Below are positions 90-44,899 of a stretch of 64,000 nt of DNA, in pieces (the stretch's first letter is position 1; each line of letters begins with the position of its first letter). A model generated the notes under the pieces. The model worked only from the letters and a program-made list of their open reading frames with translations, was not told where the DNA came from and made no database searches. The translations under genes were made by a program, and so were the position numbers. The stretch covers positions 1 through 64,000 of the forward strand of contig NW_026852972.1 of the NCBI RefSeq assembly GCF_026571515.1. Reading direction: 5' to 3'. The stretch is from Ruditapes philippinarum. Taxonomy: Eukaryota.

Positions 90-550
90 TAGTTATATAA
101 CCATTAAAATATTTCAATACGTATTATTTTAATTTTGCATAGCTTCATGTAGTATCTTTTATGGAAATGTCAATGAGTTCAGTGTGTTAACTTTACCTAT
201 GCTTTATATGCTTTTTTATTTTAAGTTACTCGAATTATATGATGCGTGCTTTATTTTGTACTTATGTAATGAGACTTTCATTTTAACTGTCAGTGTACGT
301 ACCTTTATCTGTATACGTACCATTTTTAGCAGATGCAGGGATGCCAAAAATAGATTTCTACACATTTACTATTACAGCCTTTATTTATAGACTGATAATT
401 TTCAGGATTGAAAGGAACATACATTGGATGGTCCTGTGTTGGGAGTCACAAGGTCACTTGTGCTAGCAATAGATATGTGAGATTTTTTTATACAACCTTT
501 GTAAAATAATTACCAATGTCTTATATTTACAATATAAGGAACAAAACTTA
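90..550. repeat. Older, internally deleted copy of part of the tandem unit
   Basis: About 107-330 matches ~1582-1820, and ~335-550 matches ~3378-3590, with more substitutions than between the three young copies. Confidence 0.8.
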
Positions 551-949
551 GGTGGTCCTGTGAGCTTGGAATAAGTTTGTGTACACTTGGCTCAAGTTCA
601 ATGATTTTTATTTATATGTATTTGATAAAGTTTTATGGGTAAGTTGAATATTTTTCAACTTCTTCACAAGTCAAAGCAATGACTTGCCAACTCACATTTT
701 CACAGTAACAAAACGCAATGATTGTCAAGTAATATAATTGTGTTGACAAATATAGTGGCAATTTTTTGGCCATATCTGAGTGAATGTGTAAAGCTTTAAA
801 AAAAGTTACCGACAAGAATCTGAGCCAGGGACATTCGTGTCTAACAAACACGTTCTTGTTTTAATCTAGGAATTTGTTTGATACATTCTGTGCTTTGATT
901 TGTCCTCGAGCTTGATTAGGGGTGTAACATTATTTCCATTTTGTAGTTT

Positions 950-1540
950 TAAAAAGTAAAACTGGCTGTTAAAAGTCTCCCCGTATATCTAGTCAATGAT
1001 GTTATATTTTCGATCCTTGAAGATCGTTCAGCACGACATTATTGTTGTGCTTGTGGTATTTTAAGTTTCAACTTTTCGGCATTTTCTAGTTGGGTGGTTC
1101 CAATATTCCTACTTGAATAATATGTTGCCTGCTTTTTAAATTTGTCTTTTGACGTCTTATCTGTGATACGCAGGCTTCATTTCCTCTGATCCCCTTTCAA
1201 AATTCCATTTTATTTAGTTCCGCATATTGTTTTCTCGTTTAGGGCACACGCTTTTTATTACTTTGGGACCATACGCCGCTTTTCATGGAATGGCACGGAA
1301 GTGTCACATTGAAAGTTCCATGATAACCGCCGTATGAACACATCTGCGGATGTTTCTAAATTCAAAATTTTACTATTACATGTTTAAATGTTGAATTCTG
1401 CTTAAGCCGGTGCTAGGGGGCGTGGACGGTAACTTGCACTTTCCAGTACCGTCCATGAACACGCTCAATCAAACCGAGCCTGCAACATTTTCAATTTTGC
1501 CGTGTTGAGCTTTCTTTAGGGATTCTGTATTTATCTAATT
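950..1540. mobile_element. ~590 bp insert of an unidentified repeat family with structured hairpins (also ~4700-5290 and ~8485-9078)
   Basis: The paralogous empty site at ~3900-3930 (tagttttagttaacttgccag) lacks this segment. Diverged homologues lie at ~19820-20055, ~41640-42025, ~42795-42915 and, inverted, ~43440-43870. Confidence 0.7.
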
Positions 1541-2221
1541 TAGTTCACTTGCCAGTTATTATCTTACTATAATGTAAAAAAAAATATTTCAATACGTATA
1601 ATTTTAATTTTGCTATGCTTCATGTAATATTTTTATGGAAATGTCAATGAGTTCAGTGTGTTAACTTAACCTATGCTTTATATGTTTTTTTTATATTAGG
1701 TTACTCGAATTATATGATGTGTGCTTTCTTTTGTACTTATGTAATGAGGAGTGAAATTTTAAATTTTCATTTTAACTGTCAGTGTACGTACCGTTATCTG
1801 TAAACGTATCATTTGTTAGCAATTTACATTGTTGAATCATTCCGCAATAAGATTTTAATAAGTATCATTGCAATATTAAATTGTTAAAAAAAAACTTTGT
1901 CCATTTTCAAGTAACCAGCCAGTTTTAATAAATTTTGTATGAATTTGTTACTTCTGCTTTAAGATACTTTGAACATCAGTAAAATCGTTTTCGTTTCCAA
2001 ATTGTGAAAACATTTTGTAGTAGGATAACGAATACAATAGTTTTTGTGCTGTCATTCTTTCTATATCGATCTAATAGCTTATATTAGTGCATTTTCTTTT
2101 CATTTTTTTGTATTATACTTATTATTAAATACGCATAGTAATATTTCGTTATTTCATTTTTGTGAAAAAGAAATTAATTGTATGTGGTCAGATTGTTTGC
2201 TTGACATGCAATATTTTAGCC

Positions 2222-3590
2222 TTTATATGCTCCCGGCATATAGTAATTGAATTGTCCGTCCGTCGGTCCATCTGTTCGTTCTTCCTTACGAGGTTGACCT
2301 AAAACGGCAAGTTCTATATGTACCAATGGCTTCATAATTTACACACTTACTAATAAATACAAAGTACATAATCTTGGCAAGTGCCATAACTATGGCTTTA
2401 ATTTTTTCAAGTTATTTCCCATTTCAGCATTTTGTAAATGGATATGGTTAACCTAAGTCGGCAAGTTGGATATAATTTTTGTTCCAACTATAATAATGAC
2501 TTCATATTTCCATACTTACTTATCAATATAAAGTACATGATATTTCCAAATTATATAGCTGTGCCATTCATTCTTCATTTTATTGCCCTTTTTATCGATT
2601 TGAAAATAGAGCCTTGTTCAATTAACCTATTTCGGTAAGTTGAATGAATCTTGAATTTCGTCTATTTTCTTTAATTATTTAATGGTATCTTTCATATTTG
2701 GAAGGTGGTCATTGATATAAAAATAAACGTTTGGTCTCATACAGCCTTTATTTTTAATTTGATGTCTTTTGTGGTTAATACGGGCGTGCCTAGAGAGGTC
2801 CTCTTCCTAGAGAGGTACAGTTAGAGGTCAAGGTCAATGACACCAATGTCAAACATAGGTTTTGACACTTGTACATGTGTAAAGTTACTAGTATTCTTAT
2901 AACTGATGTCTTTTATTTTGTATAGGAAATCTTCTTCCTTCGGATGGAGTTAGGAATCTGTTGGGATAGGTCACCAGTGCCTTAAAAAAGATTTTTACAC
3001 TTTCACCCAATCAGCCTTTAATTATGGACAGACGTCTATATACTTGGCAGGCAGATCATTTGCACGATTTTCTTCATTTTGATTGTGTCAGAGGTTACTG
3101 GGTTGAGGACAAGAGTGCCAATAATAGATTTCTACACATTTGCTTATACAGCTTTTATTTTTATCTGATGCTTTTCATATTTGAATAGATAATTACTTGC
3201 ATGATCTGATTTCTTTAGATTGAGTAAGGTGTAATTTTGATCAAGTTCAGCTGTGCTAAAATAGGATTTTTACATTTTTGCCCATACAGCCTTTATTTAT
3301 GTACACATATCTTTCATATTTGGTAGAAAGATGTCTTTTATGATATTCTGCCTTTGGATTTGGATTTTGGCTCATTATCAGGGATGCCAAAAATAGATTG
3401 CTACACATTTACTTATACATCCTGTATTTATAGACTGATAATTTTCAGTTTTGGAAGGAACATACCTTGGATGGTCCTGTGTTGGGAGTCACAAGGTCAC
3501 TTGTGCTAGCAATAGATTTGTGACACTTTTTATACAACATTTGTGAAAAAATACCAATGTCTTATAATTACAATATAAGGAACATACCTT
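2222..3590 (+). mobile_element. Degenerate HINE-like (Helentron-associated) non-autonomous element, repeated in each tandem copy
   Basis: It starts tttatatgctcccggcatatagt, followed by a (GTCC)n microsatellite and decayed ~130-170 bp core repeats (tacagcctttatt, ggtcaaggtca). This architecture is typical of bivalve HINE/pearl-type elements. The right boundary is approximate. Confidence 0.55.
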
Positions 3591-6500
3591 GAGTGGTCCT
3601 GTAAGCTTGGAATAAGTTTGTGTACACTTGGCTTAAGGTCAATGTCTTTAATAAGACGTCTACAAAAAAGAACAAAACGCCATGACTGTCAAGTAATATA
3701 ATTGTGTTGACAAATATAGTGGCATTTTTTGGCCATATCTGAGTGAATGTGTAAACCTTTAAAAAAATGTTACCGACAAGAATCTGAGCCGGGGGCCAAT
3801 TGTCTTTAACAAACACATTCTTGTTTTAATCTAGGAATTTGATTGATACATTCTGTGCTTTGATTTGTCCTCGAGCTTGATAAGGGGTGTAACATTATTT
3901 CCACTTTTTAGTTTTAGTTAACTTGCCAGTTATTATCTTACTATAATGTTGTCTAATCAAACAGTAGTGTATGTTGTTATTGTATTATTAGCTTATCTGA
4001 GCACAAATTTCTCACAGGTGAGCTTTTGTGATGGCAGTTTGTCCGTCGTTGGTCAGTTGTCGCTTGTCGTTATCCACAGTCCCTTGAAACAACATCTCCT
4101 AAACCAGTCAGTTATTTTTACCAAATTCCACAGCAATTATTCTTACGTGGCTTTCTCAAAAGTTAAATAAATTCTTCAAATCTGATTTTAAGTAGGTCAT
4201 AACCACAATGCCCTGAGTTCAAATATTTATCTTCTAAAAAGGTTATTAAAATCATGTACCTGAGGTTCAAGATTCAACCCGCCCCTGTGGTCACTTAATG
4301 TATTGAGACTTAAGTGGTCCTGTAAGCTTGGAATAAGTTTGTGTACACTTGGCTCAATGTCAATGTCTTTTATTTATATATATTTGATAAAGTTTGATGA
4401 GTAAGTTGAATATTTTTAAACTTCTACACAAGTCAAAGCAATGACTTGCCAATTCACATTTTCACAGTAACAAAACGCAATGATTGTCAAGTAATATAAT
4501 TGTGTTGACAAATATAGTGGCAATTTTTTGGCCATATCTGAGTGAATGTGTAAAGCTTTAAAAAAAGTTACCGCCAGGGACATTCGTGTCTAACAAACAC
4601 GTTCTTGTTTTAATCTAGGAATTTGTTTGATACATTCTGTGCTTTGATTTGTCCTCGAGCTTGATTAGGGGTGTAACATTATTTCCATTTTGTAGTTTTA
4701 AAAAAGTAAAACTGGCTGTTAAAAGTCTCCCCGTATATCTAGTCAATGATGTTATATTTTCGATCCTTGAAGATCGTTCAGCACGACATTATTGTTGTGC
4801 TTGTGGTATTTTAAGTTTCAACTTTTCGGCATTTTCTAGTTGGGTGGTTCCAATATTCCTACTTGAATAATATGTTGCCTGCTTTTTAAATTTGTCTTTT
4901 GACGTCTTATCTGTGATACGCAGGCTTCATTTCCTCTGATCCCCTTTCAAAATTCCATTTTATTTAGTTCCGCATATTGTTTTCTCGTTTAGGGCACACG
5001 CTTTTTATTACTTTGGGACCATACGCCGCTTTTCATGGAATGGCACGGAAGTGTCACATTGAAAGTTCCATGATAACCGCCGTATGAACACATCTGCGGA
5101 TGTTTCTAAATTCAAAATTTTACTATTACATGTTTAAATGTTGAATTCTGCTTAAGCCGGTGCTAGGGGGCGTGGACGGTAACTTGCACTTTCCAGTACC
5201 GTCCATGAACACGCTCAATCAAACCGAGCCTGCAACATTTTTCAATTTTTGCCGTGTTGAGCTTTCTTTAGTGATTCTGTATTTATCTAATTTAGTTCAC
5301 TTGCCAGTTATTATCTTACTATAATGTAAAAAAAAAAAAATATTTCAATACGTATAATTTTAATTTTGCTATGCTTCATGTAATATTTTTTATGGAAATG
5401 TCAATGAGTTCAGTGTGTTTAACTTAACCTATGCTTTATATGTCTTTTTTATATTAAGTTACTCGAATTATATGATGTGTGCTTTCTTTTGTACTTATGT
5501 AATGAGGAGTGAAATTTTAAATTTTCATTTTAACTGTCAGTGTACGTACCGTTATCTGTAAACGTATCATTTGTTAGCAATTTACATTGTTGAATCATTC
5601 CGCAATAAGATTTTAATAAGTATCATTGCAATATTAAATTGTTAAAAAAAAACTTTGTCCATTTTCAAGTAACCAGCCAGTTTTAAATAAATTTTGTATG
5701 AATTTGTTACTTCTGCTTTAAGATACTTTGAACATCAGTAAAATCGTTTTCGTTTTCCAAATTGTGAAAACATTTTGTAGTAGGATAACGAATACAATAG
5801 TTTTTTGTGCTGTCATTCTTTCTATATCGATCTAATAGCTTATATTTAGTGCATTTTCTTTTCATATTTTTGTATTATACTTATTATTAAATACGCATAG
5901 TAAATATAGCGTTATTTTCATTTTTGTGGAAAGAAATTAATTGTATGTGGTCAGTTTGTTTGCTTGACATGCAATATTTTAGCCTTTATATGCTCCCGGC
6001 ATATAGTAATTGAATTGTCCGTCCGTCGGTCTATCTGTTCGTTCTTCCCTACGAGGTTGACCTAAAACGGCAAGTTCTATATGTACCAATGGCTTCATAA
6101 TTTACACACTTACTAATAAATACAAAGTACATAATCTTGGCAAGTGTCATAACTATGGCTTTAATTTTTTTCAAGTTATTTCCCATTTCAGCATTTTTGT
6201 AAATGGATATGGTTAACCTAAGTCGGCAAGTTGGATATAATTTTTGTTCCAACTATAATAATGACTTCATATTTCCATACTTACTTATCAATATAAAGTA
6301 CATGATTTTTCCAAATTATATAGCTGTGCCATTCATTCTTCATTTTATTGCCCTTTTTATCGATTTGAAAATAGAGCCTTGTTCAATTAACCTATTTCGG
6401 TAAGTTGAATGAATCTTGAATTTTCGTCTATTTTCTTTAATTATTTAATGGTATCTTTCATATTTGGAAGGTGGTCATTGATATAAAAATAAACGTTTGG

Positions 6501-9500
6501 TCTCATACAGCCTTTATTTTTAATTTGATGTCTTTTGTGGTTAATACGGGCGTGCCTAGAGAGGTCCTCTTCCTAGAGAGGTACAGTTAGAGGTTCAAGG
6601 TCAATGACACCAATGTCAAACATAGGTTTTGACACTTGTACATGTGTTAAAGTTACTAGTATTCTTATAACTGATGTCTTTTATTTTGTATAGGAAATCT
6701 TCTTCCTTCGGATGGAGTTAGGAATCTGTTGGGATAGGTCACCAGTGCCTTAAAAAAGATTTTTACACTTTCACCCAATCAGCCTTTAATTATGGACAGA
6801 CGTCTATATACTTGGCAGGCAGATCATTTGCACGATTTTCTTCATTTTGATTGTGTCAGAGGTTACTGGGTCGAGGACAAGAGTGCCAATAATAGATTTC
6901 TACACATTTGCTTATACAGCTTTTATTTTTACCTGATGCTTTTCATATTTAAATAGATAATTACTTGCATGATCTGATTTCTTTAGATTGAGTAAGGTGT
7001 AATTTTGATCAAGTTCAGCTGTGCTAAAATAGGATTTTTACATTTTTGCCCATACAGCCTTTATTTATGGACACATATCTTTCATATTTGGTAGGAAGAT
7101 GTCTTTTATGATATTCTGCATTTTGATTTTGGATTTTGGCTCATTATCAGGGATGCCAAAAATAGATTTCTACACATTTACTAATACAGCCTTTATTTAT
7201 AGACTGATAATTTTCAGTTTTGGAAGGAACATACATTGGATGGTCCTGTGTTGGGAGTGACAAGGTCACTTGTGCTAGCAATAGATTTGTGAAACTTTTT
7301 ATACAACATTTGTGAAAAAATACCAATGTCTTATAATTACAATATAAGGAACATACCTTGAGTGGTCCTGTAAGCTTGGAATAAGTTTGTGTACACTTGG
7401 CTTAAGGTCAATGTCTTTAATAAGACGTCTACAAAAAAGAACAAAACGCCATGACTGTCAAGTAAATATAATTGTGTTGACAAAATATAGTGGCATTTTT
7501 TGGCCATATCTGAGTGAATGTGTAAACCTTAAAAAAAAATGTTACCGACAAGAATCTGAGCCGGGGGCCAATTGTCTTTAACAAACACATTCTTGTTTTA
7601 ATCTAGGAATTTGATTGATACATTCTGTGCTTTGATTTGTCCTCGAGCTTGATAAGGGGTGTAACATTATTTCCACTTTTTAGTTTTAGTTAACTTGCCA
7701 GTTATTATCTTACTATAATGTTGTCTAATCAAACAGTAGTGTATGTTGTTATTGTATTATTAGCTTATCTGAGCACAAATTTCTCACAGGTGAGCTTTTG
7801 TGATGGCAGTTTGTCCGTCGTTGGTCAGTTGTTCCTTGTCGTTATCCACAGTGCCTTGAAACAACATCTCCTAAACCAGTCAGTTATTTTTAGCAAATTC
7901 CACAGCAATTATTCTTACGTGGCTTTCTCAATAGTTCAATAAATTCTTCAAATCTGATTTTAAGTAGGTCATAACCACAATGCCCTGAGTTCAAATATTT
8001 ATCTTCTAAAAAGGTTATTAAAATCATGTACCTGAGGTTCAAGATTCAACCCGCCCCTGTGGTCACTTAATGTATTGAGACTTAAGTGGTCCTGTAAGCT
8101 TGGAATAAGTTTGTGTACACTTGGCTCAAGGTCAATGTGTTTTATTTATATTTATTTGATAAAGTTTTATGAGTAAGTTGAATATTTTTAAACTTCTACA
8201 CAAGTCAAAGCAATGACTTGCCAATTCACATTTTCACAGTAACAAAACGCAATGATTGTCAAGTAATATAATTGTGTTGACAAATATAGTGGCAATTTTT
8301 TGGCCATATCTGAGTGAATGTGTAAAGCTTTAAAACAAGTTACCGACAAGAATCTGAGCCAGGGACATTCGTGTCTAACAAACACGTTCTTGTTTTAATC
8401 TAGGAATTTGTTTGATACATTCTGTGCTTTGATTTGTCCTCGAGCTTGATTAGGGGTGTAACATTATTTCCATTTTGTAGTTTTTAAAAAGTAAAACTGG
8501 CTGTTAAAAGTCTCCCCGTATATCTAGTCAATGATGTTTTATATTTTCGATCCTTGAAGATCGTTCAGCACGACATTATTGTTGTGCTTGTGGTATTTTA
8601 AGTTTCAACTTTTCGGCATTTTCTAGTTGGGTGGTTTCCAATATTCCTACTTGAATAATATGTTGCCTGCTTTTTAAATTTGTCTTTTGACGTCTTATCT
8701 GTGATACGCAGGCTTCATTTCCTCTGATCCCCTTTTCAAAATTCCATTTTATTTAGTTCCGCATATTGTTTTCTCGTTTAGGGCACACGCTTTTTATTAC
8801 TTTGGGACCATACGCCGCTTTTCATGAATGGCACGGAAGTGTCACATTGAAAGTTCCATGATAAACCGCCGTATGAACACATCTGCGGATGTTTCTAAAT
8901 TCAAAATTTTACTATTACATGTTTAAATGTTGAATTCTGCTTAAGCCGGTGCTAGGGGGCGTGGACGGTAACTTGCACTTTCCAGTACCGTCCATGAACA
9001 CGCTCAATCAAACCGAGCCTGCAACATTTTCAATTTTGCCGTGTTGAGCTTTCTTTAGGGATTCGGTATTTATCTAATTTAGTTCACTTGCCAGTTATTA
9101 TCTTACTATAATGTAAAAAAAAATATTTCAATACGTATAATTTTAATTTTGCTATGCTTCATGTAATATTTTTATGGAAATGTCAATGAGTTCAGTGTGT
9201 TAACTTAACCTATGCTTTATATGTCTTTTTTATATTAAGTTACTCGAATTATATGATGTGTGTTTTCTTTTGTACTTATGTAATGAGGAGTGAAATTTTA
9301 AATTTTCATTTTAACTGTCAGTGTACGTACCGTTATCTGTAAACGTATCATTTGTTAGCAATTTACATTGTTGAATCATTCCGCAATAAGATTTTAATAA
9401 GTATCATTGCAATATTAAATTGTTAAAAAAAAACTTTGTCCATTTGCAAGTAACCAGCCAGTTTTAATAAATTTTGTATGAATTTGTTACTTCTGCTTTA

Positions 9501-11529
9501 AGATACTTTGAACATCAGTAAAATCGTTTTCGTTTCCAAATTGTGAAAACATTTTGTAGTAGGATAACGAATACAATAGTTTTTGTGCTGTCATTCTTTC
9601 TATATCGATCTAATAGCTTATATTAGTGCATTTTCTTTTCATATTTTTGTATTATACTTATTATTAAATACGCATAGTAATATAGCGTTATTTCATTTTT
9701 GTGGAAAGAAATTAATTGTATGTGGTCAGTTTGTTTGCTTGACATGCAATATTTTAGCCTTTATATGCTCCCGGCATATAGTAATTGAATTGTCCGTCCG
9801 TCGGTCTATCTGTTCGTTCTTCCCTACGAGGTTGACCTAAAACGGCAAGTTCTATATGTATCAATGGCTTCATAATTTACACACTTACTAATAAATACAA
9901 AGTACATAATCTTGGCAAGTGTCATAACTATGGCTTTAATTTTTTCAAGTTATTTCCCATTTCAGCATTTTGTAAATGGATATGGTTAACCTAAGTCGGC
10001 AAGTTGGATATAATTTTTGTTCCAACTATAATAATGACTTCATATTTCCATACTTACTTATCAATATAAAGTACATGATATTTCCAAATTATATAGCTGT
10101 GCCATTCATTCTTCATTTTATTGCCCTTTTTATCGATTTGAAAATAGAGCCTTGTTCAATTAACCTATTTCGGTAAGTTGAATGAAATCTTGAATTTCGT
10201 CTATTTTCTTTAATTATTTAATGGTATCTTTCATATTTGGAAGGTGGTCATTGATAAAAAATAAACGTTTGGTCTCATACAGCCTTTATTTTTAATTTGA
10301 TGTCTTTTTGGTTAATACGGGCGTGCCTAGAGAGGTCCTCTTCCTAGAGAGGTACAGTTAGAGGTCAAGGTCAATGACACCAATGTCAAACATAGGTTTT
10401 GACACTTGTACATGTGTAAAGTTACTAGTATTCTTATAACTGATGTCTTTTATTTTGTATAGGGAAATCTTCTTCCTTCGGATGGAGTTAGGAATCTGTT
10501 GGGATAGGTCACCAGTGCCTTAAAAAAAGATTTTTACACTTTCACCCAATCAGCCTTTAATTATGGACAGACGTCTATATACTTGGCAGGCAGATCATTT
10601 GCACGATTTTCTTCATTTTGATTGTGTCAGAGGTTACTGGGTTGAGGACAAGAGTGCCAATAATAGATTTCTACACATTTGCTTATACAGCTTTTATTTT
10701 TATCTGATGCTTTTTCATATTTGAATAGATAATTACTTGCATGATCTGATTTCTTTAGATGAGTAAGGTGTAATTTTGATCAAGTTTCAGCTGTGCTAAA
10801 ATAGGATTTTTACATTTTTGCCCATACAGCCTTTATTTATGGACACATATCTTTCATATTTTGGTAAGAAGATGTCTTTTATGATATTCTGCATTTTGAT
10901 TTTGGATTTTGGCTCATTATCAGGGATGCCAAAAATAGATTTCTACACATTTACTAATACAGCCTTTATTTATAGACTGATAATTTTCAAGTTTTGGAAG
11001 GAACATACGTTGGATGGTCCAGTGTTGGGAGTCACAAGGTCACTTGTGCTAGCAATAGATTTGTGAAACTTTTTTATACAACATTTGTGAAAAAATACCA
11101 ATGTCTTATAATTACAATATAAGGCACATACCTTGAGTGGTCCTGTAAGCTTGGAATAAGTTTGTGTACACTTGGCTTAAGGTCAATGTCTTTAATAAGA
11201 CGTCTACAAAAAAGAACAAAACGCCATGACTGTCAAGTAATATAATTGTGTTGACAAATATAGTGGCATTTTTTGGCCATATCTGAGTGAATGTGTAAAC
11301 CTTTAAAAAAATGTTACCGACAAGAATCTGAGCCGGGGCAATTGTCTTTTAACAAACACATTCTTGTTTTTAATCTAGGAATTTGAATGATACATTCTGT
11401 GCTTTGATTTTTCCTCGAGCTTGATAAGGGGTGTAACATTATTTTCCACTTTTTAGTTTTAGTTAACTTGCCAGTTATTATCTTACTATAATGTTGTCTA
11501 ATCAAACAGTAGTGTATGTTGTTATTGTA

Positions 11530-13746
11530 TTATTAGCTTATCTGAGCACAAATTTCTCACAGGTGAGCTTTTGTGATGGCAGTTTGTCCGTCGTTGGTCA
11601 GTTGTTCCTTGTCGTTATCCCACAGTCCCTTGAAAAACATCTCCTAAACCAGTCAGTTATTTTTAGCAAATTCCACAGCAATTATTCTTACGTGGCTTTC
11701 TCAAAAGTTCAATAAATTCTTCAAATCTGATTTTAAGTAGGTCATAACCACAATGCCCTGAGTTCAAATATTTATCTTCTAAAAAGGTTATTAAAATCAT
11801 GTACCTGAGGTTCAAGATTCAACCCGCCCCTGTGGTCACTTAATGTATTGAGACTTATGTAGAAAATACATTAAAGTCTTCTTATGTGTAACTCTTATGT
11901 CAAAAGCATAGGCATTTTACATGAAGCATTACATAGTTGAACGCTACAAAAGTAATGTCAATTATTCTCTTTGGGTCAAAAAGGCCCCGCCCTGGGGCTA
12001 CTAAATTAACATAAAATTTCTTTAAAAAAATCTATTTCCCAGAAGTACCATGTCCAAAGCTTAGATATTTGACATAAATCGTACCCTTGGGTTAAAATTG
12101 GTCCTGTCCTGGATTTTACTTAATTTATAAAGTCTTATATGGGAAAATACAATTAAGGTCGTTTTCGGGGGTTTTCATATAGTCAAGAAAGCAAAATTAA
12201 TACTGTTTGATAGAATTTCATTAAACTCGGCATGTTGTAAGAATATAACGACAACAATATTTTGAGTGAAATAGAAATCAGAATTATGTACTTATTTGAG
12301 GTCATTTTAAGATCATTTAAAATTATGTGTTCGTTTTACTGTTGATCACAGACATAATTATTACATATTTTCCAATTTGAATTAAGGAAACAAAATGCAC
12401 ATGATGCTTCAGAATGAGTAAAATTTTCATCCTTTAGAAAAGTCAAACATTAGTTTTATATAGTTAAATTAATGGTTTTAGAACATTTAAAATGCTCATC
12501 TCTTGAAAAGATGTAGCACTGGATGTTAAATTATCTGTCATAAAAGTAGCCGAATGTAAAAAATTAAGTTTTTGACTTCCATTCAAAACTAAATCATTAT
12601 ACGTTTTACTAATTGCCAAAATGCAACATTTAGGTTTTTGGCCAATTAGTAACTTTTTTGACACTAATACAGGACACACAAAAATTGAAAGCTTTTAAGA
12701 AATTAGAATAAAGCATTTCCGGGGCGTAATGGGGCTTTAGAATTGGATTTAAAAAGAAAAAGAAAAAAAAAGGCACAGGTGTAGAGAAGGGTAAAAAACC
12801 AATCCGCTCTTTATTAGTTCTTGAAATTTTTTCTTATTGACTAAACCGAAAGTAAGCTACATGACAAAGAAGGAATACAAGGTATAGTTTACCTTAATTG
12901 TGAACCATCTGCCATTAAATTCAACATGAACAGTTCATTTTCAAGGGCAGATAAGTCAAAAGCGAGGAGGGTGACCAAAATTTAAATGTTTCGGTTATCA
13001 TATTCTAAAAGACAAGCCAAGTTGAAAGATATTCTATTGAACACTTTAAGTTATGCATATATGAAAACTCCAAAAACGTCTTTAAGTCTTTCACGCCGTT
13101 CTACAATACCCGAAGCTGATTTTTCCAAGCATTGCGTAGTAGATATTTAAAAAATATCGGCCCTAAGCTTCAGAAATGGTCCGGCCCTGGAGCTCTTTAC
13201 TTTACTGAGACTTGTATTTTAAAGATATCTTGCAAAACTTATTCTTGAATACTCAAATGTCCAAATCTTAAATATGTGGCACGTAGCTTTACTTTGTGGC
13301 CCACTTTAAAATCATGACCAGTGTGTGAAATTCAATCTGTCACTAGGCTCATTTTTTGTATAACTTTTATAGAAAAATATATTTAAATCTTTCTTGTGGA
13401 TAACTACAACTAAAGTCCACAAATAGTTGTATTGCATAAAACATTTTAAGTGACCCTGAACAAAAATTAGCTCCATCATTAAACGCATCTTTTTCTCTGA
13501 TATATTTTGAATGTAGTATCACTTAGATGTTCTCTATAATCAAATATGTTAATTCCTCTGGAAGGTCAAAATTGGTTCCATTCCGGGAGTTCCAGAGAGT
13601 TATTATTACAAATGTTTTAAAAATTAAAACAACTTGAGTTAACAATCTAATGTGAACTAATTACTGAGTTTTCAAGAGTGGATATGTTATTTTTTACTAA
13701 CAATGTATCAAAGATGAGCGAATCAGGGTAATCAATCTCTTTTGTT
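11530..13746 (+). mobile_element. HINE-like element with internal core repeats; 5' fragments also at ~3985-4312 and ~7757-8084
   Basis: The 5' end is ttattagcttatctgagc...caggtgagctttt plus a gtccgtcgt microsatellite. Internal degenerate tandem cores follow. The 3' end gatgagcgaatcaggg...ctcttttgtt is at 13713-13746. Confidence 0.65.
12157..13081. mobile_element. Non-autonomous DNA transposon with TTAA TSD (Kolobok-like), nested in the HINE-like element
   Basis: TTAA at 12153-12156 and 13082-13085. Imperfect ~25 bp TIRs GGTCGTTTTCGGGGGTTTTCATATA and (rc) AGACGTTTTTGGAGTTTTCATATA, with purine-purine termini. The rejoined flanks resemble the sister core repeat at ~11861-11880. Confidence 0.8.
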
Positions 13747-19719: not shown

Positions 19720-21479
19720 TATCATGCTGAAGACGTTTTGAAATGCAGGAACATAAACAAACGCATGATCTTTACTTGTTTGGAAACTTGAAATTATGTG
19801 ACTGTTGTGTCGCGAAAACGTCTTACCTGTGATACCCTTTCAATATTTGATTTCATTTAGTTCTGCCCATGCATTCCTGCAGATGTTTCTAAATTCGAAA
19901 ATTTCATAATGTCCATACATACAATTTTTAATTCGATGCTAGGTGTTGGACGGTTACTTGCAATTTCCGTTACCGTCCAGCAAAAGCGACACTGCAACAT
20001 AAACAAAGACATATGTATGTCGCTTTATGTGTTTTTAGGGTTCCGTTTTTCTCTGTTTTACATCGTTCTATGTACGAAAGCCTCAAAACAGACAGCATGT
20101 AAATGATGATTGTTTTATCTGGAATTTACCTTAGTAAAGATATGCTTCACATATATGTTTTCATATACAGTTTTTCATATAATGAAAGATAGTTATCAAG
20201 CTAGTACTTTAGTACTTTTTGTCAATACTAACTATGCTATGTCTTAGGTTCTCAGTCCTGCCCAAAACGAACCAATTGTGTTCGAGTACTGACCAACGGC
20301 ATATCCCTTATGGCCAACTTTCGTGAAAATAATGTATTGTATTTAATATATCTTAATCAATGACTGGGCTATTGGCGATTTTTAATGATCGGATGACTGA
20401 CAATTAATTTATATAAAAATGGTCAAGAATGTGCATATTTCACATTGATTATGATATAAATATTTAAGTTTGTAATTTTTAGACCTATCAATATCTTGAA
20501 AGCTCAATTGTCTGTTTTTTCAATATATGGAAACAACATTTAACTATGTAGAAACAATTTGCATGAGACATATATGTTGTGATACATTGTAGATCATGTC
20601 TTATAATCATTAATTCTCAACCTGCTACATTAGAACAGTTGCCTTCTTCTTCTTCTTTAAAATTGATGATTGTTTGTGTGTAGGATTTTTATATGGAAAC
20701 GACATAATTTGGAAATAGTCAGTGTTTGGGTAGGACTAAACAGCCACCGGAAAATCTTTGCACCACCGGGATAGTGGCAAACTTCACTACCATTTATACT
20801 TGCCCTAAACACTTAAAAATCATTTCATCCGATAGATTAAATGTTAATTATAAATAATTGACTTCATTTGAAGCTATTTTAATTTTTTTCTTATCAGAAA
20901 GTGTATTTTAAAAAATTTGTCCGGGCGGAAATTAATGTATTCCGCCCGGAATTATGCTGTCCGGCCGGAATTTACTTATATTCCAATTGGAATTTTTTCC
21001 AACATTATTATTTATTCCAACGGGAATTTCAATTTTTCCAGCAACGCTTAAACTATAAAAATAACCATTCATACATCCTTTAATGACATTCTGACTAGTT
21101 TTGAAGAACTTATTCTCTAAAATAAAAAAATCCCATTTTGAAAGCTGGAAAAAATTCCGACTGGATTTTTACAGAAAAAATTTGATAAGTTTAAAAGCGG
21201 TAATAATTATAGGCAAATGATAGTTTTCGATAGAAATTAACATAATTATACACGCTGAATTACCAATAAGGTGCTTTGGAAAAAAATGAAAATCCGATTG
21301 GATTTATTTCCAATTATTTTTTTTGGAAAAAATTCCAACTGGATTTTTTTCCAATAAAAGTTATTGGAAAAAAATCCAACTGGATTTTTCATCAAATGAT
21401 TCATTTTTCAATTATTTCACAGTTATCCATTTGATTTCCTTTTAATAAGAGATTACGAATTATTTATAACTATGATGAT

Positions 21480-29945: not shown

Positions 29946-32900
29946 TAACATAACATAACATAATCTTTATTTCTCTCAATACATGTATACATGCAAATAT
30001 GAGGAATTTACAAATAAATGATATAATCATACGAGGCTCATAAAAGATGACAAACAAAACATGCTAATCAATAATTACAAATTTTAGAACTAATGCAATA
30101 TAAATAACACAAGTATTTTCAGTGAATAGTTAAGTTCTTATCTTTTGAATAATACATTTAACAAATTTACACAATTTGGAGAAATTCAGATTTGTTTTTA
30201 GTACACATAAGATGTTCTAGTTTAAAAAAATGTTTGGTCGTTGATAATATACTTTTTTCAAAAATCGTTTTCTTTCTTCGTTAAATTGACAACATTCAAG
30301 TTTAAATAATGAAATTCGTCGCCAATTTTATTTTGACAATTAGGACAAAAAATCTTTAGTTAATTGGAGTACTGGACCAATTTCCCGTTTCTATTGGAAA
30401 TCGATGATTTCTTGTTCGAAATTTAATAAAAAAGTACAGTAATGAACTATCTAAATTTGCCAAGTACGATTCAAATCCATAAAGTTTTCTCTTAATTATT
30501 CTATTAAAATAAACTGTTACTCGAAATTTTCAATGTTTATAATACCACTCATTTAAAAAAAAATCTTTTAACTTTTGTTTAACAGAAAGTTTGAGCCACT
30601 CAGAGTTTGTAAATGTGTTGTCGAACCACACTTCTGATAGACCACATTTGATTAAAATAGTTTTGACATTAAAAACCATGGAAATTTCTTTTTTAAGCAA
30701 AATTATCACTTAAACCAGCTGCCTGAGTGTAGTAAGTTATTATAGACAAGAATTGACAATTTATTATTAGCGTTAACACCGTCGTTATTACATAATTTTG
30801 ACCAGAATGATATTATCCTTTCTTCGATGTCAATAGCTAGAGGCATACAACCGGTCTCTCCATAAACAAAATAATTTGCTGTTGACTTTTTTAATTTAAG
30901 AATAATTTTTAAAAACCTTAGTTGTACTCGCTCAATAATGTCGAGATTACCAAATCCCCAAATTTCTACACCGTACAGTAAAATCGGCTTAATTGTTTTT
31001 GTTAAATAATTCAATTTGTAAATCAATTGGAAGATTGAGACGATTAGAATTTTTTAATTAAACTATACATGGCTCTTGTAGCTTGGCTCGCGATATGTTT
31101 TTTTTACATTTTAGAAAAGAAACCTGTTTTACTAAAATAAATTCCAAGATATTTGTACTCATTTACTACCTCGATAGGTTTCGTTTTTGAAAGTAAAATT
31201 ATACATTTGTTGTCTACCTTTAGAAAAAACTACGATTTTTGTCTTTGACGTATTAACCTTAAGTTTCCAAGTATCACAGTATTGTTCATATATATTTAAT
31301 GCTTTTTGTAAATCATCTGCTGTTTCTGATATTATAACCGTATCGTCAGCATAGAGTAATATAAATAATTTTAAAAGACAGAGAAAAGCTCATTTGTATT
31401 ACTTCCATTTACCAATGTTATTCCATGTACGTTACTATCATTTAAAAAATACGATTCTAGATCGTTTAAAAAAAAGTGAAAATAGCAATGGCGATAAAAT
31501 TTTCTCCTTGTCGTACACCTATATTACAAGGAAAAAAAAATAGAAAAACAAGAATTTACCTTAACACATGACTTAATATTACTGTACAAATTTTTAATGA
31601 CCTGAAAACATTTTCCATTAATATTTGAGTTTATCAGTTTTTCCCGTAAACCATTTCTCCATCTGTGTCAAATGCTTGTTTAAGATCAATAAAGGAGCAA
31701 AAAAGCTTTTTTCCATTGTTATTAAGATAATGAAAATGTGTTGCAAAACAAATAAATGATCTGAAGTAGAAAAACCTTTCCTAAAACCTGTCTGTACATT
31801 GTTAATTATTTCATTAGATTCAACATAATCAGTTATTCTTTTATTTAAAAATACAAGTAAAAACTTTACCTAAACAACTTAACAAAGTTATAGGCCTATA
31901 ATTTCCAGGGTCAGATTTGTCCCCTTTGTTTTTATATATTGGGTTGATTATACCAATAGTCCATGATTCAGGAATTATACCGGTATTTAATATTAGGTTA
32001 AAAAGTTTAACATATATTGTTTTCATTAATGGAAATGTTGCTTTAAGGTGTTCATTTACTACATTGTCATATCCACTGGCTTTATTATTTTTAAGGGTTT
32101 TTGATTGCATACTCAATTTCATTGTCTGTGATTGGAACATTAATCTGTTCGTTACTTTCATTTACTTCATTAGAAATTTGGTCCATCTATAATTTCATCA
32201 CTTTCATCATTTTAAAATTTACACTTTTAAAGAAATTATAAAGGTCAGTTAGGTCAGCCTCGTAATTTTTGTTTTGTTTTTTGTTTAAAATTTTCCAATA
32301 GTTTCGTGGGTCTTTACCTTTAAAGATTTCGCAATTTACTTATACTTTCTTTTTTCTCATTTCTATAGAATTGTTTTAACGTGCCTTTATATATTTTTGC
32401 GTTTTGTTTCAAGTTTTCCTTTGTGGTTTCGTTTTTTTTCTTAATTTATAAAGTGCTTTGCAGTGTGAAAATTTTTTTCTAGCCTTTTTACATTTTGGTC
32501 CAAACCAAGGTTTGGAATTATTAGTTATTTTTTTTTGTTATTAATATCTTTTATTTTTGTATGTCCAAAAATTTCACGGGACGTATTTGAAAATAATGAC
32601 GATATGGTTTCAGTTATTATGTCAGCATTTTCTTGAGTGAAATTATTATTGACTTCAAAGTTATCTAATGCTTCATTAATGTTTTGTATTTCATTAACAT
32701 CTATCTTATTTAAAAACTCATTTGTTTTAGTGCTATCCCAAAGTTTTATGGTAGGTTTCTCCATTTGTACACTACATTTGCTCAATTCAAAAGCTTAATT
32801 TAAGTTCCACAGGGTTATGTACGTCTGACATTAAGGGACAAAAGTCTAACACATTAAGAGACACAATTTGCTTAAAACAGTTTGAATTACAGATAAAATA

Positions 32901-34615
32901 ATCAACAGTACTTGTGCCTTTACACGTTGTTTTCCCCCGGAATATCCATATTTGTTCTACCGTTTAAAATGTTATAGACAATTAAGTTTTAAAAAATCGA
33001 GTAATTGGGGATCCATAGTTGTTAGACGTTTTGTCACTATTTATACTGGTCCGTTTAAACATTAACTGCCGAGTCGAACATACTCATCTCAATATTATAT
33101 TCTGAACAAAGTTCTTCTAAATTTTGACTTTCAAAAAAATCTGTGTCAAGTATAATATAATCATCTAAAGATTTAGTTCTGCTATTGAAATCTCCAAATA
33201 GACGAAATGAGTCATATTTATCAATAAAATTACTATAATCGTTCTGTATCTCTAAAAAGGGGTCCTCAAACTGAATATTCTGAATATTCGGGTGGTATAT
33301 AAATAACACCACACAATAGATCATTATCAGTTTTACATATTGATTTTTGACACAGTAAACCATAACACCAATTTACAATCTGTTTCTATGATCTTAACGT
33401 ATTTTGAAATATCTTTTCTGACAAATAATGCTAAACCCCCTGATTTACGACGAGTTCTGATATCATGTCTATTTTTTTCATAAATACATCATAACCAGGT
33501 AAATCTATAAAGTCTAAGTTATCACATTTAGTTTCTTGTAAAACAATAATACAATATTGCTCTAATAACTTTGTAAATTCAGGGCAGCCTAGTTTCGATT
33601 TTAAACCACAGACATTTAGAGATAAAATACTAAACAGTTCTGCATCTAGAGAATCTTTGTTGCTCAGTAATTCGGATTCAGATAAATTTAAGTAGCTAGT
33701 CGAATTACCTCCCTTGTTTACTTCAACATCATTTACAGTAAAAAAGTTTAAATCATTAAATCCGGTGCAATCAATTTTATGGGTAACATTTGGGCTAATA
33801 TACCCTGCATTATTTAGGTTACTATTCATTGTATACAAATTCGTAAAGACATCATGACTTGTTAAGTAGTAATAATAAAAAAATTCCCTAGGATCGTAAT
33901 TCGCATATAAAAAATGATTAACATTCCAAGGTGATTTAAAGCTGTTATAACAGTTATATAAATACCATGATCTGTAACTGTAAAGATAATACATGTAGTA
34001 CATACACGTTTCATAGTAACTGACAGACAAATAATAAGAGTTTAACAAAGCATAATAATTGTAAATGTCTAGTCCGTTAAACACGTTACTGTTATCTGCA
34101 CTACACTGTTTATATTTTGGTATTTTTTTTGTCTGCATTATAAAAGTGAGGTTCCCCCTAGGGGGGTTACAATAGTAAAAGTCAAAATCCTTGAGAATAA
34201 TACCGTGTCAGCATCGTATCGATCTGACTCTTTTCTCAATAAGAACTCCATTGTTGTTTGATCCATTGCACACAATCATCAGCTGTAGCATTCCGTTTTA
34301 AGTTGCAATCAGACTCTAGCGGCGAGCGTTCTTTACGTTTTTGAACTGCCTATCAATATCCATAGTGTCGTAATAAAGAGCATTAAATCTGTTAGGAGTT
34401 TCAAAAGTTAGTGTTGTAGTATTGGTATTCTGAATATGACGTGACTGCACTGCACCAATTCGTTGGTTTTGAGAACTCCTGGGCACTAAAGTACTCTACT
34501 CGATCCCCAATGCGTTCACGAGAATTACTGGTTGGACTGGGATGGCGTACATAATGTTTGTCCAGTTTTGTCAGTATATTTTCCACTATTTGGGTTAAAT
34601 AACTGATTATTGATG
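29946..34615 (-). mobile_element. LINE A: non-LTR retrotransposon (RTE-X/CR1-like), 5'-truncated within ORF1
   Basis: 3' end AATAAA + (TTATG)n tail at ~29946-29972. The host satellite is interrupted at 29945 and resumes at ~34616. It encodes an ORF1 tail (TPNRFNAL, KRKERSPLE) and a full APE-RT ORF2. Confidence 0.92.
30140..34138 (-). pseudogene. ORF2 of LINE A: AP endonuclease + reverse transcriptase + C-terminal Cys/His motif, frameshifted
   Basis: SLNVCGLKSK..LQETK, GDFNSRT, KASGYD, KGDKSDPGNYRPITLLSCLGKVFT, GVRQGE (~31505), LYADD (~31342-31356), KPILLYGVEIWG, RTRNHRFPIETG. Confidence 0.95.
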
Positions 34616-34969
34616 TAAACTGTATGTAAAATTTACGGCTAATTGATCCACATTTTGTTTATGTTTTTGTGTGATATATCCAAAGATGGTCATTTGTGTT
34701 TTTCACACCATGCAATTCGATCTCAATCTGATTAAAGGGTAATAAAACTTAATTTATGGAATGTTTTCACAAGATTTTGGGGTGCGAACATCCAATTTTC
34801 AATTTCAAATTTTATTGCCTGAAACATTATACAATGTTTATAGCAGATAAACAATATAAACATATATACCTGTCCAATGGATAAGACATGAGTAAAACAA
34901 TTAACAAGAGCTTAACAAACAGACAAAGAGAAGAAGTTCAATACAATATTATCAAAATATGGTGCTTTA

Positions 34970-36363
34970 AACAATACGAATTTTATTTGCAGAAAAAATG
35001 AATTTTGCTAAGTTATATAAAGTATTTTTTGATGACGAACACTTGATATTTTCAAATTTGTTTAAAGAAGGCTTAGCTTTCTTTTTAAACCTATTATATC
35101 GTGTCTTGGCTTTAACAAACCTTTGTTTATTTTCATCCGTTTTATTCCTATTATGCAAGTTCTTAAGAGATTTAAATTTGATCTTTTCTTGTTTACATTT
35201 GCTATCAAACCATAAGTGATTTTCGTATTTAATTTTGTATTTTTTTGTTATTTATCTACCGAATACAGTTTCAGCTGCTGAATGAAGTAAATTTGTGAAT
35301 TGTGTGGCAGATTCATTGACGTCACCAGAATTAACTTGTGTTATCAATTTATTAATTGACTCATATCATTTCTTAAAAGACAATTAAAAGAGTTTACCTT
35401 ATTTGTGTCAAAAACTATTGTTTTTATATTATTTTGAGTGTTTTCTGATTTCGTACCGTCAAACTCTAATGTAACACTGAATTTAGACTTTAATTCAAAA
35501 GACATACACGCATGATCGGAGAATTCATTGAAATCATTTATAGAAAAAATTGTCTATATATTTTGAAAGTATCATATTTAAGTAGAAGATAGTCTAAAAC
35601 ACTGGCACCCCTATCGTTACAAAAAAAGTAAAATCTCCTGAAGTATCATTTCCTAATCGGCCATTTGCAATTAAAAAAACCGGTCGATTGACATAATTGT
35701 AACAGATTTTCTCCCATAAGAATCAATGACCTTATCTTTACTACATCTTGCGTGAGATATCTATCATATTTAAAATAAATGAAAAAGGTTGATTGTCATC
35801 TAAGTAATTTATCAAAAACAATAAAAATCGTAATCATCAGAAATTCTACTATTCATGTCACCAGTAATGAGAACATGGCCTAAGTTTTCATAATGAACAA
35901 TATTTGATTCTGAAGCAATCAAAAAAGTCAAAAGTATTATTTTCTAATACAAACGAATTATTACTTTTGGGTCTCTTGTAAACATGGCATAGATAATATC
36001 AGTATCTTGTGAAAAAGAGTTCTATCTAAATTTTTTAATCGCCAAAATAGTCCATTGATGTTTTTTTTTCAATTATACTTATTTTATCTTTAAGATATGT
36101 TTTTATAATATACGAGAAAATACCTTCCGAAAAACGTCCAGTCTTTTTGTGTTTCGATTTAACTCCATATAAATGATTATTTAAAACTATCAATGTTAAA
36201 GATTTGTTCTATTTTTCACTAGAAATCCACGTCTCAATTAAAAAAAATAATGTCAAAAAACACTTTGATATAGTCAATAAAGTCATGATCCCTAACTTTC
36301 CGTTTTAAATCCGTTTATATTCCATGCTCCTACGCTAAGGGATAGCTCTTGACCCCCCCCCCC
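34970..36363 (-). pseudogene. ORF2 N-terminal half of LINE B (AP endonuclease and linker)
   Basis: GAWNINGFK, ETWIS, GDMNSR, ANGRLGND, FNEFSDHACMSF, LWFDSKCK. It ends before the RT domain. Confidence 0.88.
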
Positions 36364-41639: not shown

Positions 41640-42090
41640 AAGTATTTATGACAAAATCCAGAGGAAAGCAAGTAATAACGTTTGGTAGTCTTTTTAATCG
41701 AATCCAATCTTTTTCAATCGAATCTTGGTCTTCTAGTCTGCAATTCTCTTGTATTTTTGTGTGATTTATGCTTCCGAGGGATCACTTTGTTTCCAGATTT
41801 TTATACTTTACAACAGCAGGTGTCAAGTGCTGTGTGGCAGCTGTAAAAAGTTTCCCCGTACTTCACTTCAGTGTTGTTATATTTTTCTGGTCCTTCGGGA
41901 TCATTGATGCCAGCACTATTAAGTGTTGAGAATTGAGTACCGCTCAAGCCGGTGCTAGGGGGCGTGAGGGATGTTGCACATTTTCATTATCCCTCATGTA
42001 CAGACTCAATCAAACCGAGTCTGCAATTCTCTTGTAATTTTGTTGTGATTTATGCTTCTGAGGGATCACTTTGTTTCCAGATTTTTTATC
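41640..42090. repeat. Rearranged copy of the unidentified hairpin family, with a ~68 bp direct repeat
   Basis: 41830-41910 is similar to 960-1040, and 41946-42025 to 1404-1485. gtctgcaattctc...ccagattttt is repeated at ~41736 and ~42019. Confidence 0.75.
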
Positions 42091-44899
42091 AAGGTTTAAT
42101 TGTCATACAAGTTTTTTTTCACATAAAAAATGCTCTAAGTATCCATAAAGTGATATAGCTTTAAAAGTTCAACTTCAATGTGTTTTAACCTTATTTTAAA
42201 ATGAGGAGGCCAACAGTACAATGAACAAAATATAAAATTAAAGATAAAATATAATTACATTTCTGTTACGTTTATAAAAAGCAATTGCTTTTTTTAAAGA
42301 TATTGTGTGCAAAAAAAATCGAAATGGATGGATTTCAGTTCAGTATAATTGTCATTGCGGGCTTTAATCGTGTTTATAACCTGGTATTCAACCAAATTAA
42401 TTGGACGTAAAACCAAGTTTTCTATAGAATTGCAAAGCGCAAAGTGTCAATAAAGCCATCAGGAATGCAGACACACAGACAAGCGAAGTAACAACAATTT
42501 GTGTTCAAATTGAAACTGTGATATTTACATAGAGGCCGGCAGAATCTGGTGACAAAAAAGTGGATTCCAGTGGAATCTTTCATAAAAACTGTGGAAGCTG
42601 TGAAGAAATGTGTTGTAAACTTTACTCGAGAATGGAAAGCTTTAATTCCAAATTAGATGATTAGTTGGTTAATTTACCGAAAATTATTAAATTTTCTATG
42701 CCATCTATGATATTTGGAAATGGATGAATCACGTTGTATAAAATTTATTGTTTTGTGGATTAAAAGGTAGCGTTAAAAACGTCACTGCGAGAGAAAAAGG
42801 ACCGTGATATATACACTTTACAGTACCGTCCATGAATAGGTTGAATCAAATCGAGCCGCAACATCTTCAATTTTGTTTGTTATGGCCGTTGGTTACGGAT
42901 TCTGTTTTTCTTTATTTTATATGTGATCAAAATTCTGAGAAACAGCATTAAATCACATTATGTACAGACATCAAGTCACATTTTACTTCTATTTTAACAC
43001 AATCCATTTCCTCTCAGGAGCCTCACATAATCCTCAATTTCTATAAATAAGTGTAATGGAAGTAGAATTTAAGGATCATTTTAGAATAATTTTCGAAATT
43101 TACCGATTTATCTGAATATTCAGAGATATTATTCAAATAAATACATTATATCCTGCAACAAATGTGAAGTGAACTTGTCTTACTTTCAATGTAGGAAGTG
43201 TACTTTGCGACTTCCACGCTTTCGATATCAAATTGTTTTGATTTAGAGAAAAAATATCAAGAAAAAAGTTGCGACCACTTGGAAGCAATAAAAACAGCAA
43301 CAACGAAATTGTTTTTAAAAATGCTGATTTGGTTTGATCGAGTCTGTCTTTGGAAAAAACTGTTGGAGTACAACAAGCCTTTCGCCCCCAGCTCCGGTTT
43401 TGTGTGGTATCCAAACTTCAACAATTTCGTGTCGGAAGCATAGATCCCCGAGGATAAATAAAAGATAATAACACTAAAGTGAAATACAAGATAATTATAT
43501 AGCTGCCGCTTGGTACTCAACAACTGCAGTTGTGAAGTATAAAAATCTGGAAAACAGGTGATAACTCGGAAGTTTAATAGAACAAGAACTTCAGCAGATC
43601 GCATATATGTTGTGGTAGTATGTCTTTATACTGATAGTAAATGTTTATGCGGTTGTACGACGAGAAACAGTTTTAGCTGCACTACAAAATACTTACGACT
43701 GCGATCATGAAAATGACTTCAGTTAGCCGTTGAGATAATTCACCTTCTTCAGCTCTTATGGAAATGTTCAATCCATGCCAATATACTTGAAATGCTAGAA
43801 TTCCCAATTAGGTAAGTCGTCGTGCTTCAGTAAGTGTTCAATTAAGAAACCAACCAGATTCGATTACAAAAAGGTAAATGTCTTCCAGATGTAATTAGTT
43901 ATTTTATATTCTTAAAATGTTTCATTTATCTCTGCGAGCAAAATGCTGCGAATACCTTTTAGGAAATTAGGAAATACCAAGTATAGTAATTGTTTTATGA
44001 CATGATCGAATTTCTAGCTTTCTCAAAGTCATTCTAGACAGAATCCCTGTAATACAGTTTCATGTTAATTTCGTCTAAAATAGAAGTTGGCTCAGACAAA
44101 ACAAAACGACAAACCAGTGCGAAAGACTAATTGCAGCAATCAACAACGGCCACAAAACCAAGAAATGTGTTCGAGTGTTGCCGTCGAATAACAGAAAGCT
44201 TTTGACAGCTATAAAACGAATCGTTGACATTGTACCTTGAATTTAACAGATGACTCTGGAGCATTTACAATGTCTTACAATGATCATGAAATTGGGTTTT
44301 GTATTGGCATTCATAATTACTAATTATAAATTATAATATTTCTCATATGTACCTTCGGACAAGTTTTTCAAACACCGGTTAAAAGTCCGCGAAATTGTTC
44401 GCAGTTTATGACGGCCTTTCAAGCACCTTGTTGTCGCTAGATCATGAATTTTCACCATTTGTAGACGAAATTTAGACAGAATGTCAGAGAAGAATGATTT
44501 TCAGGTATTTTTGTATCTTTTTATGTCTTTTATTTAAAAAGAAATACAAAGTTTTAATGTGCAAAACTAGAATTTTTATTTTTTAGGAAGTTGCGTCTGC
44601 TGTCAAATAATAGAGCGCTTCAGTTAAAAAAATGAGTTTATCTTTGGTGAAATCATGTTTTTGACTTGTCAGTTTGCATCCTGCATGTAATATATAGAAC
44701 ACAGTATTTGAAATGTAAGTTTTAGCTATGAATTTTATCGAATAATCCTGGTTTTTCAGTGGTTAAACTTCTTAGCAACAGTATATACAAAAGGAAATTG
44801 TCTCCTTCATAACATAGTTACAGTGCAAGAGTAGTCGTCCAATGACATCGATCGATTTACTATAATATAGAATAATTAAACCTAACATAGATGTATATG

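Follow-up and report, generated by a model that had tools for sequence, protein, structure and literature searches.

According to the available portions of two reports, animal non-LTR retrozymes consist of tandem non-coding monomers of ~150–450 bp, up to ~970 bp in vertebrates (PMC7229834; 10.64898/2026.07.22.740005), and their RNA circles are abundant in tissues (PMC7229834). In Ruditapes philippinarum, a structured RNA domain was found in two dispersed non-coding repeat families, A and C, with monomers of 630 and 283 bp, respectively. These families share with the retrozymes the head-to-tail arrangement of non-coding monomers of a few hundred bases, a predicted circle with strong self-pairing, copy numbers in the thousands, and, as stated for retrozymes in the same portions of the two reports, homology to the termini of a Penelope-like element (PLE) that is proposed as the helper. 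They differ from retrozymes, which carry a type I hammerhead in each unit, in having another covarying domain instead. The probable helper of A and C is Naiad, recognized by a common junction rod, and their RNA was not abundant in two RNA-seq runs.

Non-autonomous Chlamys elements (MRC1), as presented in part of PMC8557442, resemble A and C in lacking an ORF, in having pLTRs and multicopy head-to-tail insertions, in their similarity to the 3′ end of an autonomous family, and in having a helper in the Naiad/Chlamys clade. A and C differ from MRC1 in their animal host, in a similarity that extends to either side of the junction of the helper, and in a conserved RNA domain of their own. The clam elements Naiad_Mmer and Naiad_Scon, in the same portions of that paper, show 5′ truncation, partial tandems, and inversions, which form the Penelope-like insertion pattern, and a sequence similar to the rod of A and C also occurs at the start of Naiad_Scon. 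Naiad lacks the four-way junction described below, whereas A and C encode nothing. The traits of non-autonomous elements of the Naiad/Chlamys type were present in A and C (no ORF, an end in common, 5′ truncation, partial tandems, and inverted 5′-truncated copies), and no non-autonomous Naiad is described in the available portions of PMC8557442 and its supplement. Searches of the open-access literature gave no description of the A/C element; Repbase or Dfam may list the repeat as unknown or Penelope-derived. A and C are likely hammerhead-less, retrozyme-like passengers of Naiad.

Copies in the window and in the genome

The window analyzed here is a stretch of 64,000 nucleotides from the 1.41-Gb genome of R. 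philippinarum. A 5′-truncated family-A insertion without an ORF occupies positions 964..1542 on the plus strand, covers 0.92 of the 630-bp monomer, is 92% identical to the family majority, and ends 3′ at a T-run common to about 65 of the 89 A ends. The same insertion recurs on the plus strand at 4714..5294 (domain at 5134–5243) and 8499..9081 (domain at 8923–9032). Self-comparison revealed a 3.77-kb tandem triplication at 546–11860 with units 97.8–98.1% identical and an A insertion in each. The copies near 1400, 5150, and 8940, which the earlier note had counted as independent, therefore represent a single insertion that was triplicated. As to the further copies in that note, the one at 42798 was decayed, as had been reported; the one at 19947, where an intact stem had been noted, was also a decayed family-A copy.

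These two copies lie on the plus strand at 42798..42920 (5′-truncated, 81% identity, stopping at the T-run) and at 19825..20036 (29 bits, 73–83% identity), respectively. A family-C insertion of 1.25 units of the 283-bp monomer was located at 41735..42086 on the plus strand (domain at 41926–42034, 121.9 bits, 97%) and also stopped at the T-run, and an old C-type copy, absent from the earlier note, was found on the minus strand at 43313..43585 (24.6 bits, 70%). Elsewhere in the window, the region 2215–2790 starts with a GTCC microsatellite, contains ~170-bp internal repeats, and has a HINE/DINE-type look by eye. The minus strand of 30706–37572 contains broken reading frames resembling a CR1/L2-type non-LTR retrotransposon.

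The insertion at 964..1542 was divided into four parts. Its first segment (964..1050) comprises the rod tip and the rod 3′ strand, in common with the 5′ end of Naiad; in the alignment, A 141–223 and Naiad 1–82 were 92% identical over 83 nt. An insert of ~346 nt specific to family A follows (1051..1385), for which the comparison with Naiad as a possible source gave only short chance-level matches. The four-way-junction RNA domain (1386..1490; 113.6 bits with model R1) comes next. The last part consists of the rod 5′ strand (1491..1530), the partner of which is the sequence past the 3′ end of the insertion, in the next unit or in a circle, and the U-rich loop (1531..1542), which is the end point of insertions at the same place in A, C, and Naiad and is probably the priming site. 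The C monomer consists of a four-way junction and then a long rod, and the two families are ~68% alike over their common part.

Searches with A and C yielded 218 and 2,217 first-look candidates, respectively, 40 of each being scored. A sample of 400 kb, drawn from set positions on 20 long contigs, consisted of 1.0% A, 0.34% C, and 0.09% Naiad; the A/C coverage (~1.3%) is that of a rough sample, the contigs of which were already known to hold hits elsewhere. Model R1 detected 22 copies in this sample, and neither DNA queries nor the 400 kb revealed copies in this genome other than those of the A and C types. Runs X21 and X22, although filed as RNA-seq, were used as DNA because they contained GATC–GATC joints of the Hi-C type. 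The DNA-read depth of C peaked at 36,000 from 1.37 genome equivalents, which corresponds to roughly 2–2.6 x 10^4 units.

The 3′ end of the insertions was fixed, 59 of the 67 C ends falling at monomer positions 131–146 in the T-run. The 5′ ends were scattered, with no pile-up in unbiased DNA reads 36,000 deep. Arrays were head-to-tail and 0.37–6.42 units long; whole-number lengths showed no clear excess (5 of 36 versus 2.7 expected) among array loci that were picked for long matches, so that one-unit copies were under-sampled. Adjacent units in an array differed by 2.1%, compared with 5.6% between arrays, and had 38% of variants in common, compared with 8% between arrays. Since units share private variants, each array had a single molecule or a single source as its template. 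Inversions and A/C/Naiad chimeras were common, with joints at T-rich microhomology. No target-site duplication of at least 10 bp was found in the flanks of 58 of the 59 C insertions. The flanks started with TTTT, followed by 56–61% A and 52–57% T, with no microsatellite bias evident. Every monomer contained several runs of 4–6 T, and genomic copies decayed at random.

A fold conserved on the plus strand

The domain folds into a four-way junction of ~108 nt, and the two hairpins from which the earlier note had started are two of its arms. In the window, the junction is closed by an 8-bp stem at 1386–1393/1483–1490, which the earlier note did not list. The near-invariant first arm and a G-run (1394..1420) follow, and then an 11-bp stem with the loop containing TTGCAC (1421..1457) and a 7-bp stem with the 9-nt loop AAT(C/A)AAACC (1460..1482), in which the window copy has a C·C mismatch at 1462/1480. 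The long stems were confirmed at 1421–1431/1447–1457 in A and at 41963–41973/41988–41998 in C, together with the four double changes and the one change from A-U to G-U reported between them. The TTGCAC loop, the loop of the second hairpin, and GCCGGTGCTAGGGGGCG were identical between A and C, as had been noted.

In nine copies of A and 13 of C, the 55 named pairs had a pairing rate of 93.6%, compared with 36–46% in slid controls, in a test that favors the structure, which was derived from the same A and C sequences. Between A and C, 17 of these pairs carried double changes, 9 carried single changes, and 29 were unchanged, while 8.4 double changes were expected (Fisher p = 2e-6), and pairing was kept at 22 of 24 changed pairs, compared with a mean of 12.3 in a substitution null. 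Double changes were present at 4 of the 8 pairs of the closing stem in this comparison. Covariation inside this genome amounts to one A-versus-C contrast, a single phylogenetic one, and therefore the significance was computed on one contrast.

Related elements were collected from outside the lineage by scanning metagenome contigs for an exact 19-mer, which yielded 54 loci. Four of these (L206, L207, L208, and L238) were dropped as GC-rich chance matches, and 50 were related elements, with monomers of 276–286 bp in the foreign lineages. The main foreign lineage likely came from another host, because it matched the R. philippinarum genome with 70–72% identity at best. In an alignment of 20 copies covering A, C, and at least four foreign lineages, the 33 junction pairs were 90% paired, and 15 of them had double changes; the closing stem accounted for 6 of these (among 8 pairs), the long arm for 6 (among 11), and the last arm for 3 (among 7). 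These three covarying stems were also recovered by RNAalifold. Covariation thus persisted in the larger alignment, and the proposal that selection acted on RNA structure on the plus strand was borne out by double changes beyond chance and by the foreign lineages. The results show that the fold is conserved on the plus strand across lineages.

The first arm behaved differently from these stems. It was 81% paired without any double change in the 20-copy alignment, RNAalifold paired it differently, and only the 3-bp core at 1398–1400/1408–1410 paired consistently. All 19 of its bases were identical between A and C; the foreign rows are unable to test this invariance, because they were selected by exact match to that segment. 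The invariance could reflect a signal at the DNA level. The pseudoknot that had been proposed between GTGC and GCAC (1410–1413 with 1436–1439) was compatible with the alignment, being 96% paired, and it showed no double change and one-sided changes only; at column 27–56, G-C was found in 12, G-U in 5, and a broken pair in 3 of the 20 copies.

Folding energy was also strand-dependent for C. The real C monomer had z-scores of −7.9 on the plus and −2.1 on the minus strand, and its predicted circle (−103 kcal/mol) had z-scores of −6.1 and −1.8, respectively. The predicted circle of A was structured on both strands (−5.5 and −6.2). Wobble pairs numbered 6–7 for G-U versus 0–2 for A-C.

The comparison with Rfam called for in the earlier note gave no match at the gathering score over the whole window, so that the domain is without a match to any catalogued family; relaxed searches (E up to 5–10) of window 1250–1600, of L016, L045, and L059, and of six foreign loci gave chance matches only. 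No viral contig matched a 17-mer query, and phage records gave no match. A search of indexed sequencing runs listed no RNA run with the motif, a result that carries no weight in either direction. An HDV-like fold was rejected by inspection against the consensus, since there was no conserved P3, no linker from the last hairpin to the closing strand, and no Rfam match. A hammerhead was rejected as well, because CUGANGA...GAAA occurred on neither strand of A or C and all permutations, including SGC and CSG, failed. The hammerhead blocks are given as CUGAnGA and GAAA in the pertinent part of PMC10085705; the plus strand of C contained neither, and no lineage had both in a shared place.

Naiad as the probable partner of families A and C

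The recurrent flank of the A and C insertions was identified as the retrotransposon Naiad (loci L109, L111, and L113; G000 C4612, C6405, and C4413). A tandem copy had a unit of 4,249 bp with an N-terminal GIY-YIG and DKA, and in-frame UGA codons, at least five in number, were located, among other places, upstream of GIY-YIG and eight residues past DKA. An N-terminal GIY-YIG, DKA, and UGA at DKA+8 are marks of the clam selenoprotein Naiads in the available portions of PMC8557442, and the protein resembled Naiad_Mmer in the supplement of that paper by eye. Pfam gave no RT domain match on two frameshift-bounded pieces of Naiad. The Naiad copies were 98–99% alike, and read depth indicated ~14,000 Naiad 3′ ends, related families counted in, and ~55 copies reaching the 5′ end. 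The end of the ORF carries a hairpin that is presumably SECIS-like.

The head-to-tail junction of Naiad was 79% identical to A over 135 nt and 77% identical to C over 79 nt, ended at the same T-run as A and C, and folded into the same rod (z = −4.6). All four Naiad 5′ ends recovered whole ran on across the junction. The start of Naiad_Scon, as given in the supplement of PMC8557442, resembles the rod sequence. No R1 match was found in L109 and L113, indicating that the four-way junction is absent from Naiad. The earlier note had named correspondence to a known TE end as a finding that would refute its proposal, and this applies in part: the adjoining rod is such a terminus, that of Naiad, but the motif itself is not.

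Naiad sequence outside the rod was found within 3.2 kb of 22 of 88 A/C loci and of 3 of 120 background bins (odds ratio 13, p = 1e-6), in a comparison of the best, and hence young, A/C matches with bins of all ages, after 12 of the 100 A/C loci were dropped as self or duplicate. Conversely, a copy scoring >80 bits was present in 5 of 8 places chosen for long Naiad and in 5 of 40 background regions. The surmise that the motif is a signal of a mobile element agrees with its location inside two dispersed non-coding repeat families, and A and C are likely non-autonomous passengers of selenoprotein Naiad.

Several features of the Naiad copies were recorded alongside. Arrays of A or C, in both orientations, interrupt Naiad copies, which resume within ~5 bases (L035, L045, L047, and L111 7273–8276); such arrays may have arisen by in-and-out template jumps or by targeted insertion. 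Twister-like words in P5 order occur in Naiad tails (L111 5810–5890; L083, L188, and L231), and the twister-like tail of the active Naiad family has one P2 mismatch. Sites resembling a splice donor and an acceptor flank the Naiad junction (L111 5985–6510). This arrangement may place the rod within an intron, a situation known from Penelope and Chlamys-3; at near-zero RNA depth, the predicted intron gave no spliced read.

Proposed copying of the passengers and role of the junction

In run X23, the ratio of RNA to DNA depth was ~0.014 for C and ~0.015 for Naiad 3′ ends; in run X24, it was ~0.024 for both. Most reads continued into unique flanks, and in these two unstranded runs no enrichment of C RNA over passive transcription was detected, with only 4 and 8 unit-to-unit reads at the main joint, in libraries in which a circle of 283 nt could have been lost to poly(A) or size selection. 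Given the equal ratios of C and Naiad and the reads into unique flanks, this RNA looks like passive transcription.

Our reading of these results, to which we assign a probability of about 0.6, is that the covarying junction belongs to likely passengers of Naiad that are probably copied round an RNA circle and in which the junction would cut multimers to unit length. The Naiad RT/endonuclease would very probably prime at the U-rich loop of the rod. A and C are likely copied from an RNA circle, whether closed or kept together by the rod, since pairing of the rod bridges the loop and the RT continues without stopping. On such a closed or end-paired template, the RT would probably run further rounds and sometimes jump to A, C, or Naiad RNA. 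Multimeric linear transcripts combined with template jumps within the same molecule would give identical arrays.

By analogy with retrozymes, the junction might do the job of the hammerhead, with ligation afterwards, a step that we propose tentatively; self-cleavage by the junction and recognition of the junction by a host nuclease are, each to the same degree, doubtful routes for this putative cutting. The analogy points weakly to a module that cuts multimers to unit length. The junction is a candidate because the 283-nt monomer consists only of rod and junction and the junction is kept in every passenger lineage, because Naiad, without the junction, carries twister-like tail words instead, and because conserved unpaired sequence is flanked by covarying stems. 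Against a cutting role, there was no known catalytic core in A and C, no 5′ run-off site marked a cut, and the RNA was not enriched in the two runs. It seems unlikely that the junction represents a class of self-cleaving ribozyme not described so far, driving a hammerhead-free retrozyme branch in several bivalve hosts, with circle copying by the Naiad RT from a conserved priming rod.

The absence of known catalytic words from A and C would suit the same passengers with a junction that is a non-catalytic, protein-binding or stabilizing domain for RNP assembly, export, or protection, in which case the RNA would be of unit length, its ends would be held by the rod, and the RT would jump the gap. 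The rod would pair both ends of a linear unit anyway, and template jumps between A, C, and Naiad were frequent; moreover, non-autonomous Chlamys elements form head-to-tail arrays, and most Chlamys elements lack hammerheads in the available portions of PMC8557442. However, a linear unit should pile 5′ ends at its start, and none were seen, and Naiad works with the same RT without this domain, so that we regard a scaffold as a less probable, though serious, alternative. An internal promoter, either a degenerate tRNA-type head with Pol III A and B boxes or a GC-box Pol II promoter in SINE-like passengers, would provide the transcription that a passenger needs of its own and would suit the cloverleaf-like layout. 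The loop AATCAAACC resembles a B box, and the first arm is similar to an A box; relative to the B-box consensus, the G was missing from A, C, P, and Q, and the C varied to A. ARAGORN found nothing at the 90% threshold, and its calls at 70–80% differed from the four-arm fold. No significant alignment to three host tRNAs (Arg, Lys, and Sec) was obtained, the 15 of 16 bases that the A insert (window 1171–1190 region) has in common with the anticodon arm of host tRNA-Sec being not significant at p = 0.017 among 16 tests. Several internal T runs (4–6) per monomer, the lack of a 5′ pile-up at the start, and the 15 covarying pairs, which a DNA promoter leaves unexplained, make this explanation improbable. 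A tRNA-derived SINE was rejected, since A and C have no tRNA-like head or intact A/B boxes and contain internal T runs, as judged from the three host tRNA types and the box consensus. Both tRNA-derived SINEs and TRIMp3 (Helenus) are, in the relevant portions of PMC10886601, bivalve retroelements that are short, non-autonomous, and partly cloverleaf-like, from which A and C differ in having no recognizable tRNA or intact A/B boxes and in their PLE-type arrays and helper.

The similarity to twister is closer in its words than in its core. The domain shares with twister, as depicted in part of PMC5408937, the CCG/CGG hairpin with AAG in its loop, a downstream G-run with the potential to pair with that loop, and what may be a second pseudoknot, and a rearranged or decayed twister from the tail of Naiad itself would explain the common CCG-loop-AAG-CGG hairpin, GTGC:GCAC pairing, and G-run. 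Twister-like words lie in Naiad tails beside A/C elements in two hosts, and Rfam also missed the Naiad fold (L045). In the domain, however, the general-base G and the A that follows the cleavage position are both U, an 11-bp outside helix takes the place of P1, the loop lacks one base and carries C instead of a conserved U, and there is no Rfam score. Alignment to the Naiad fold gave p = 0.054, 0.25, and 0.011 among 16 tests, and a descriptor scan found no coherent twister core, although the same scan missed the Naiad fold too. In a test of P4, the 3-bp hairpin with a CTYAAGC loop was present and showed no double changes. At the presumed places of these residues relative to P2, TA for GA and TT for AA in all lineages led us to reject twister itself, and such a derivation is quite improbable. 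Rolling-circle DNA elements also yield tandem arrays, and the domain might be the ssDNA hairpin of such a transposon (Helitron/HINE type) or else a CTCF-like site exapted by the host. A word in the window presumably resembles part of the CTCF motif, of which the upstream CCAC/CCAG half is missing. Against either origin stand the fixed 3′ end with random 5′ truncation, the inversions and chimeras, the homology to a retrotransposon terminus, the G-U pairs, which favor RNA, and the random decay of genomic copies. The ends are those of a retroelement, so that the suggestion of an ssDNA element was not upheld, and we consider this explanation very improbable.

For passengers of Naiad copied round an RNA circle, the results bear on two standing questions, namely how Penelope-like elements form partial tandems and what their RT recognizes. 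Craig et al. named an in vitro system as the next task for these elements, in the available portion of PMC8557442. The probable priming site maps to one loop that A and C have in common with an active helper, and the other module, a fold with strong covariation and no Rfam match, sits where retrozymes have their ribozyme. Pipelines for retrozymes that are based on the hammerhead miss the A and C families, which make up ~1.3% of the sampled DNA. Because the 283-nt RNA keeps just two modules, the rod and the junction, it would offer a natural substrate of minimal size for an RT related to telomerase.
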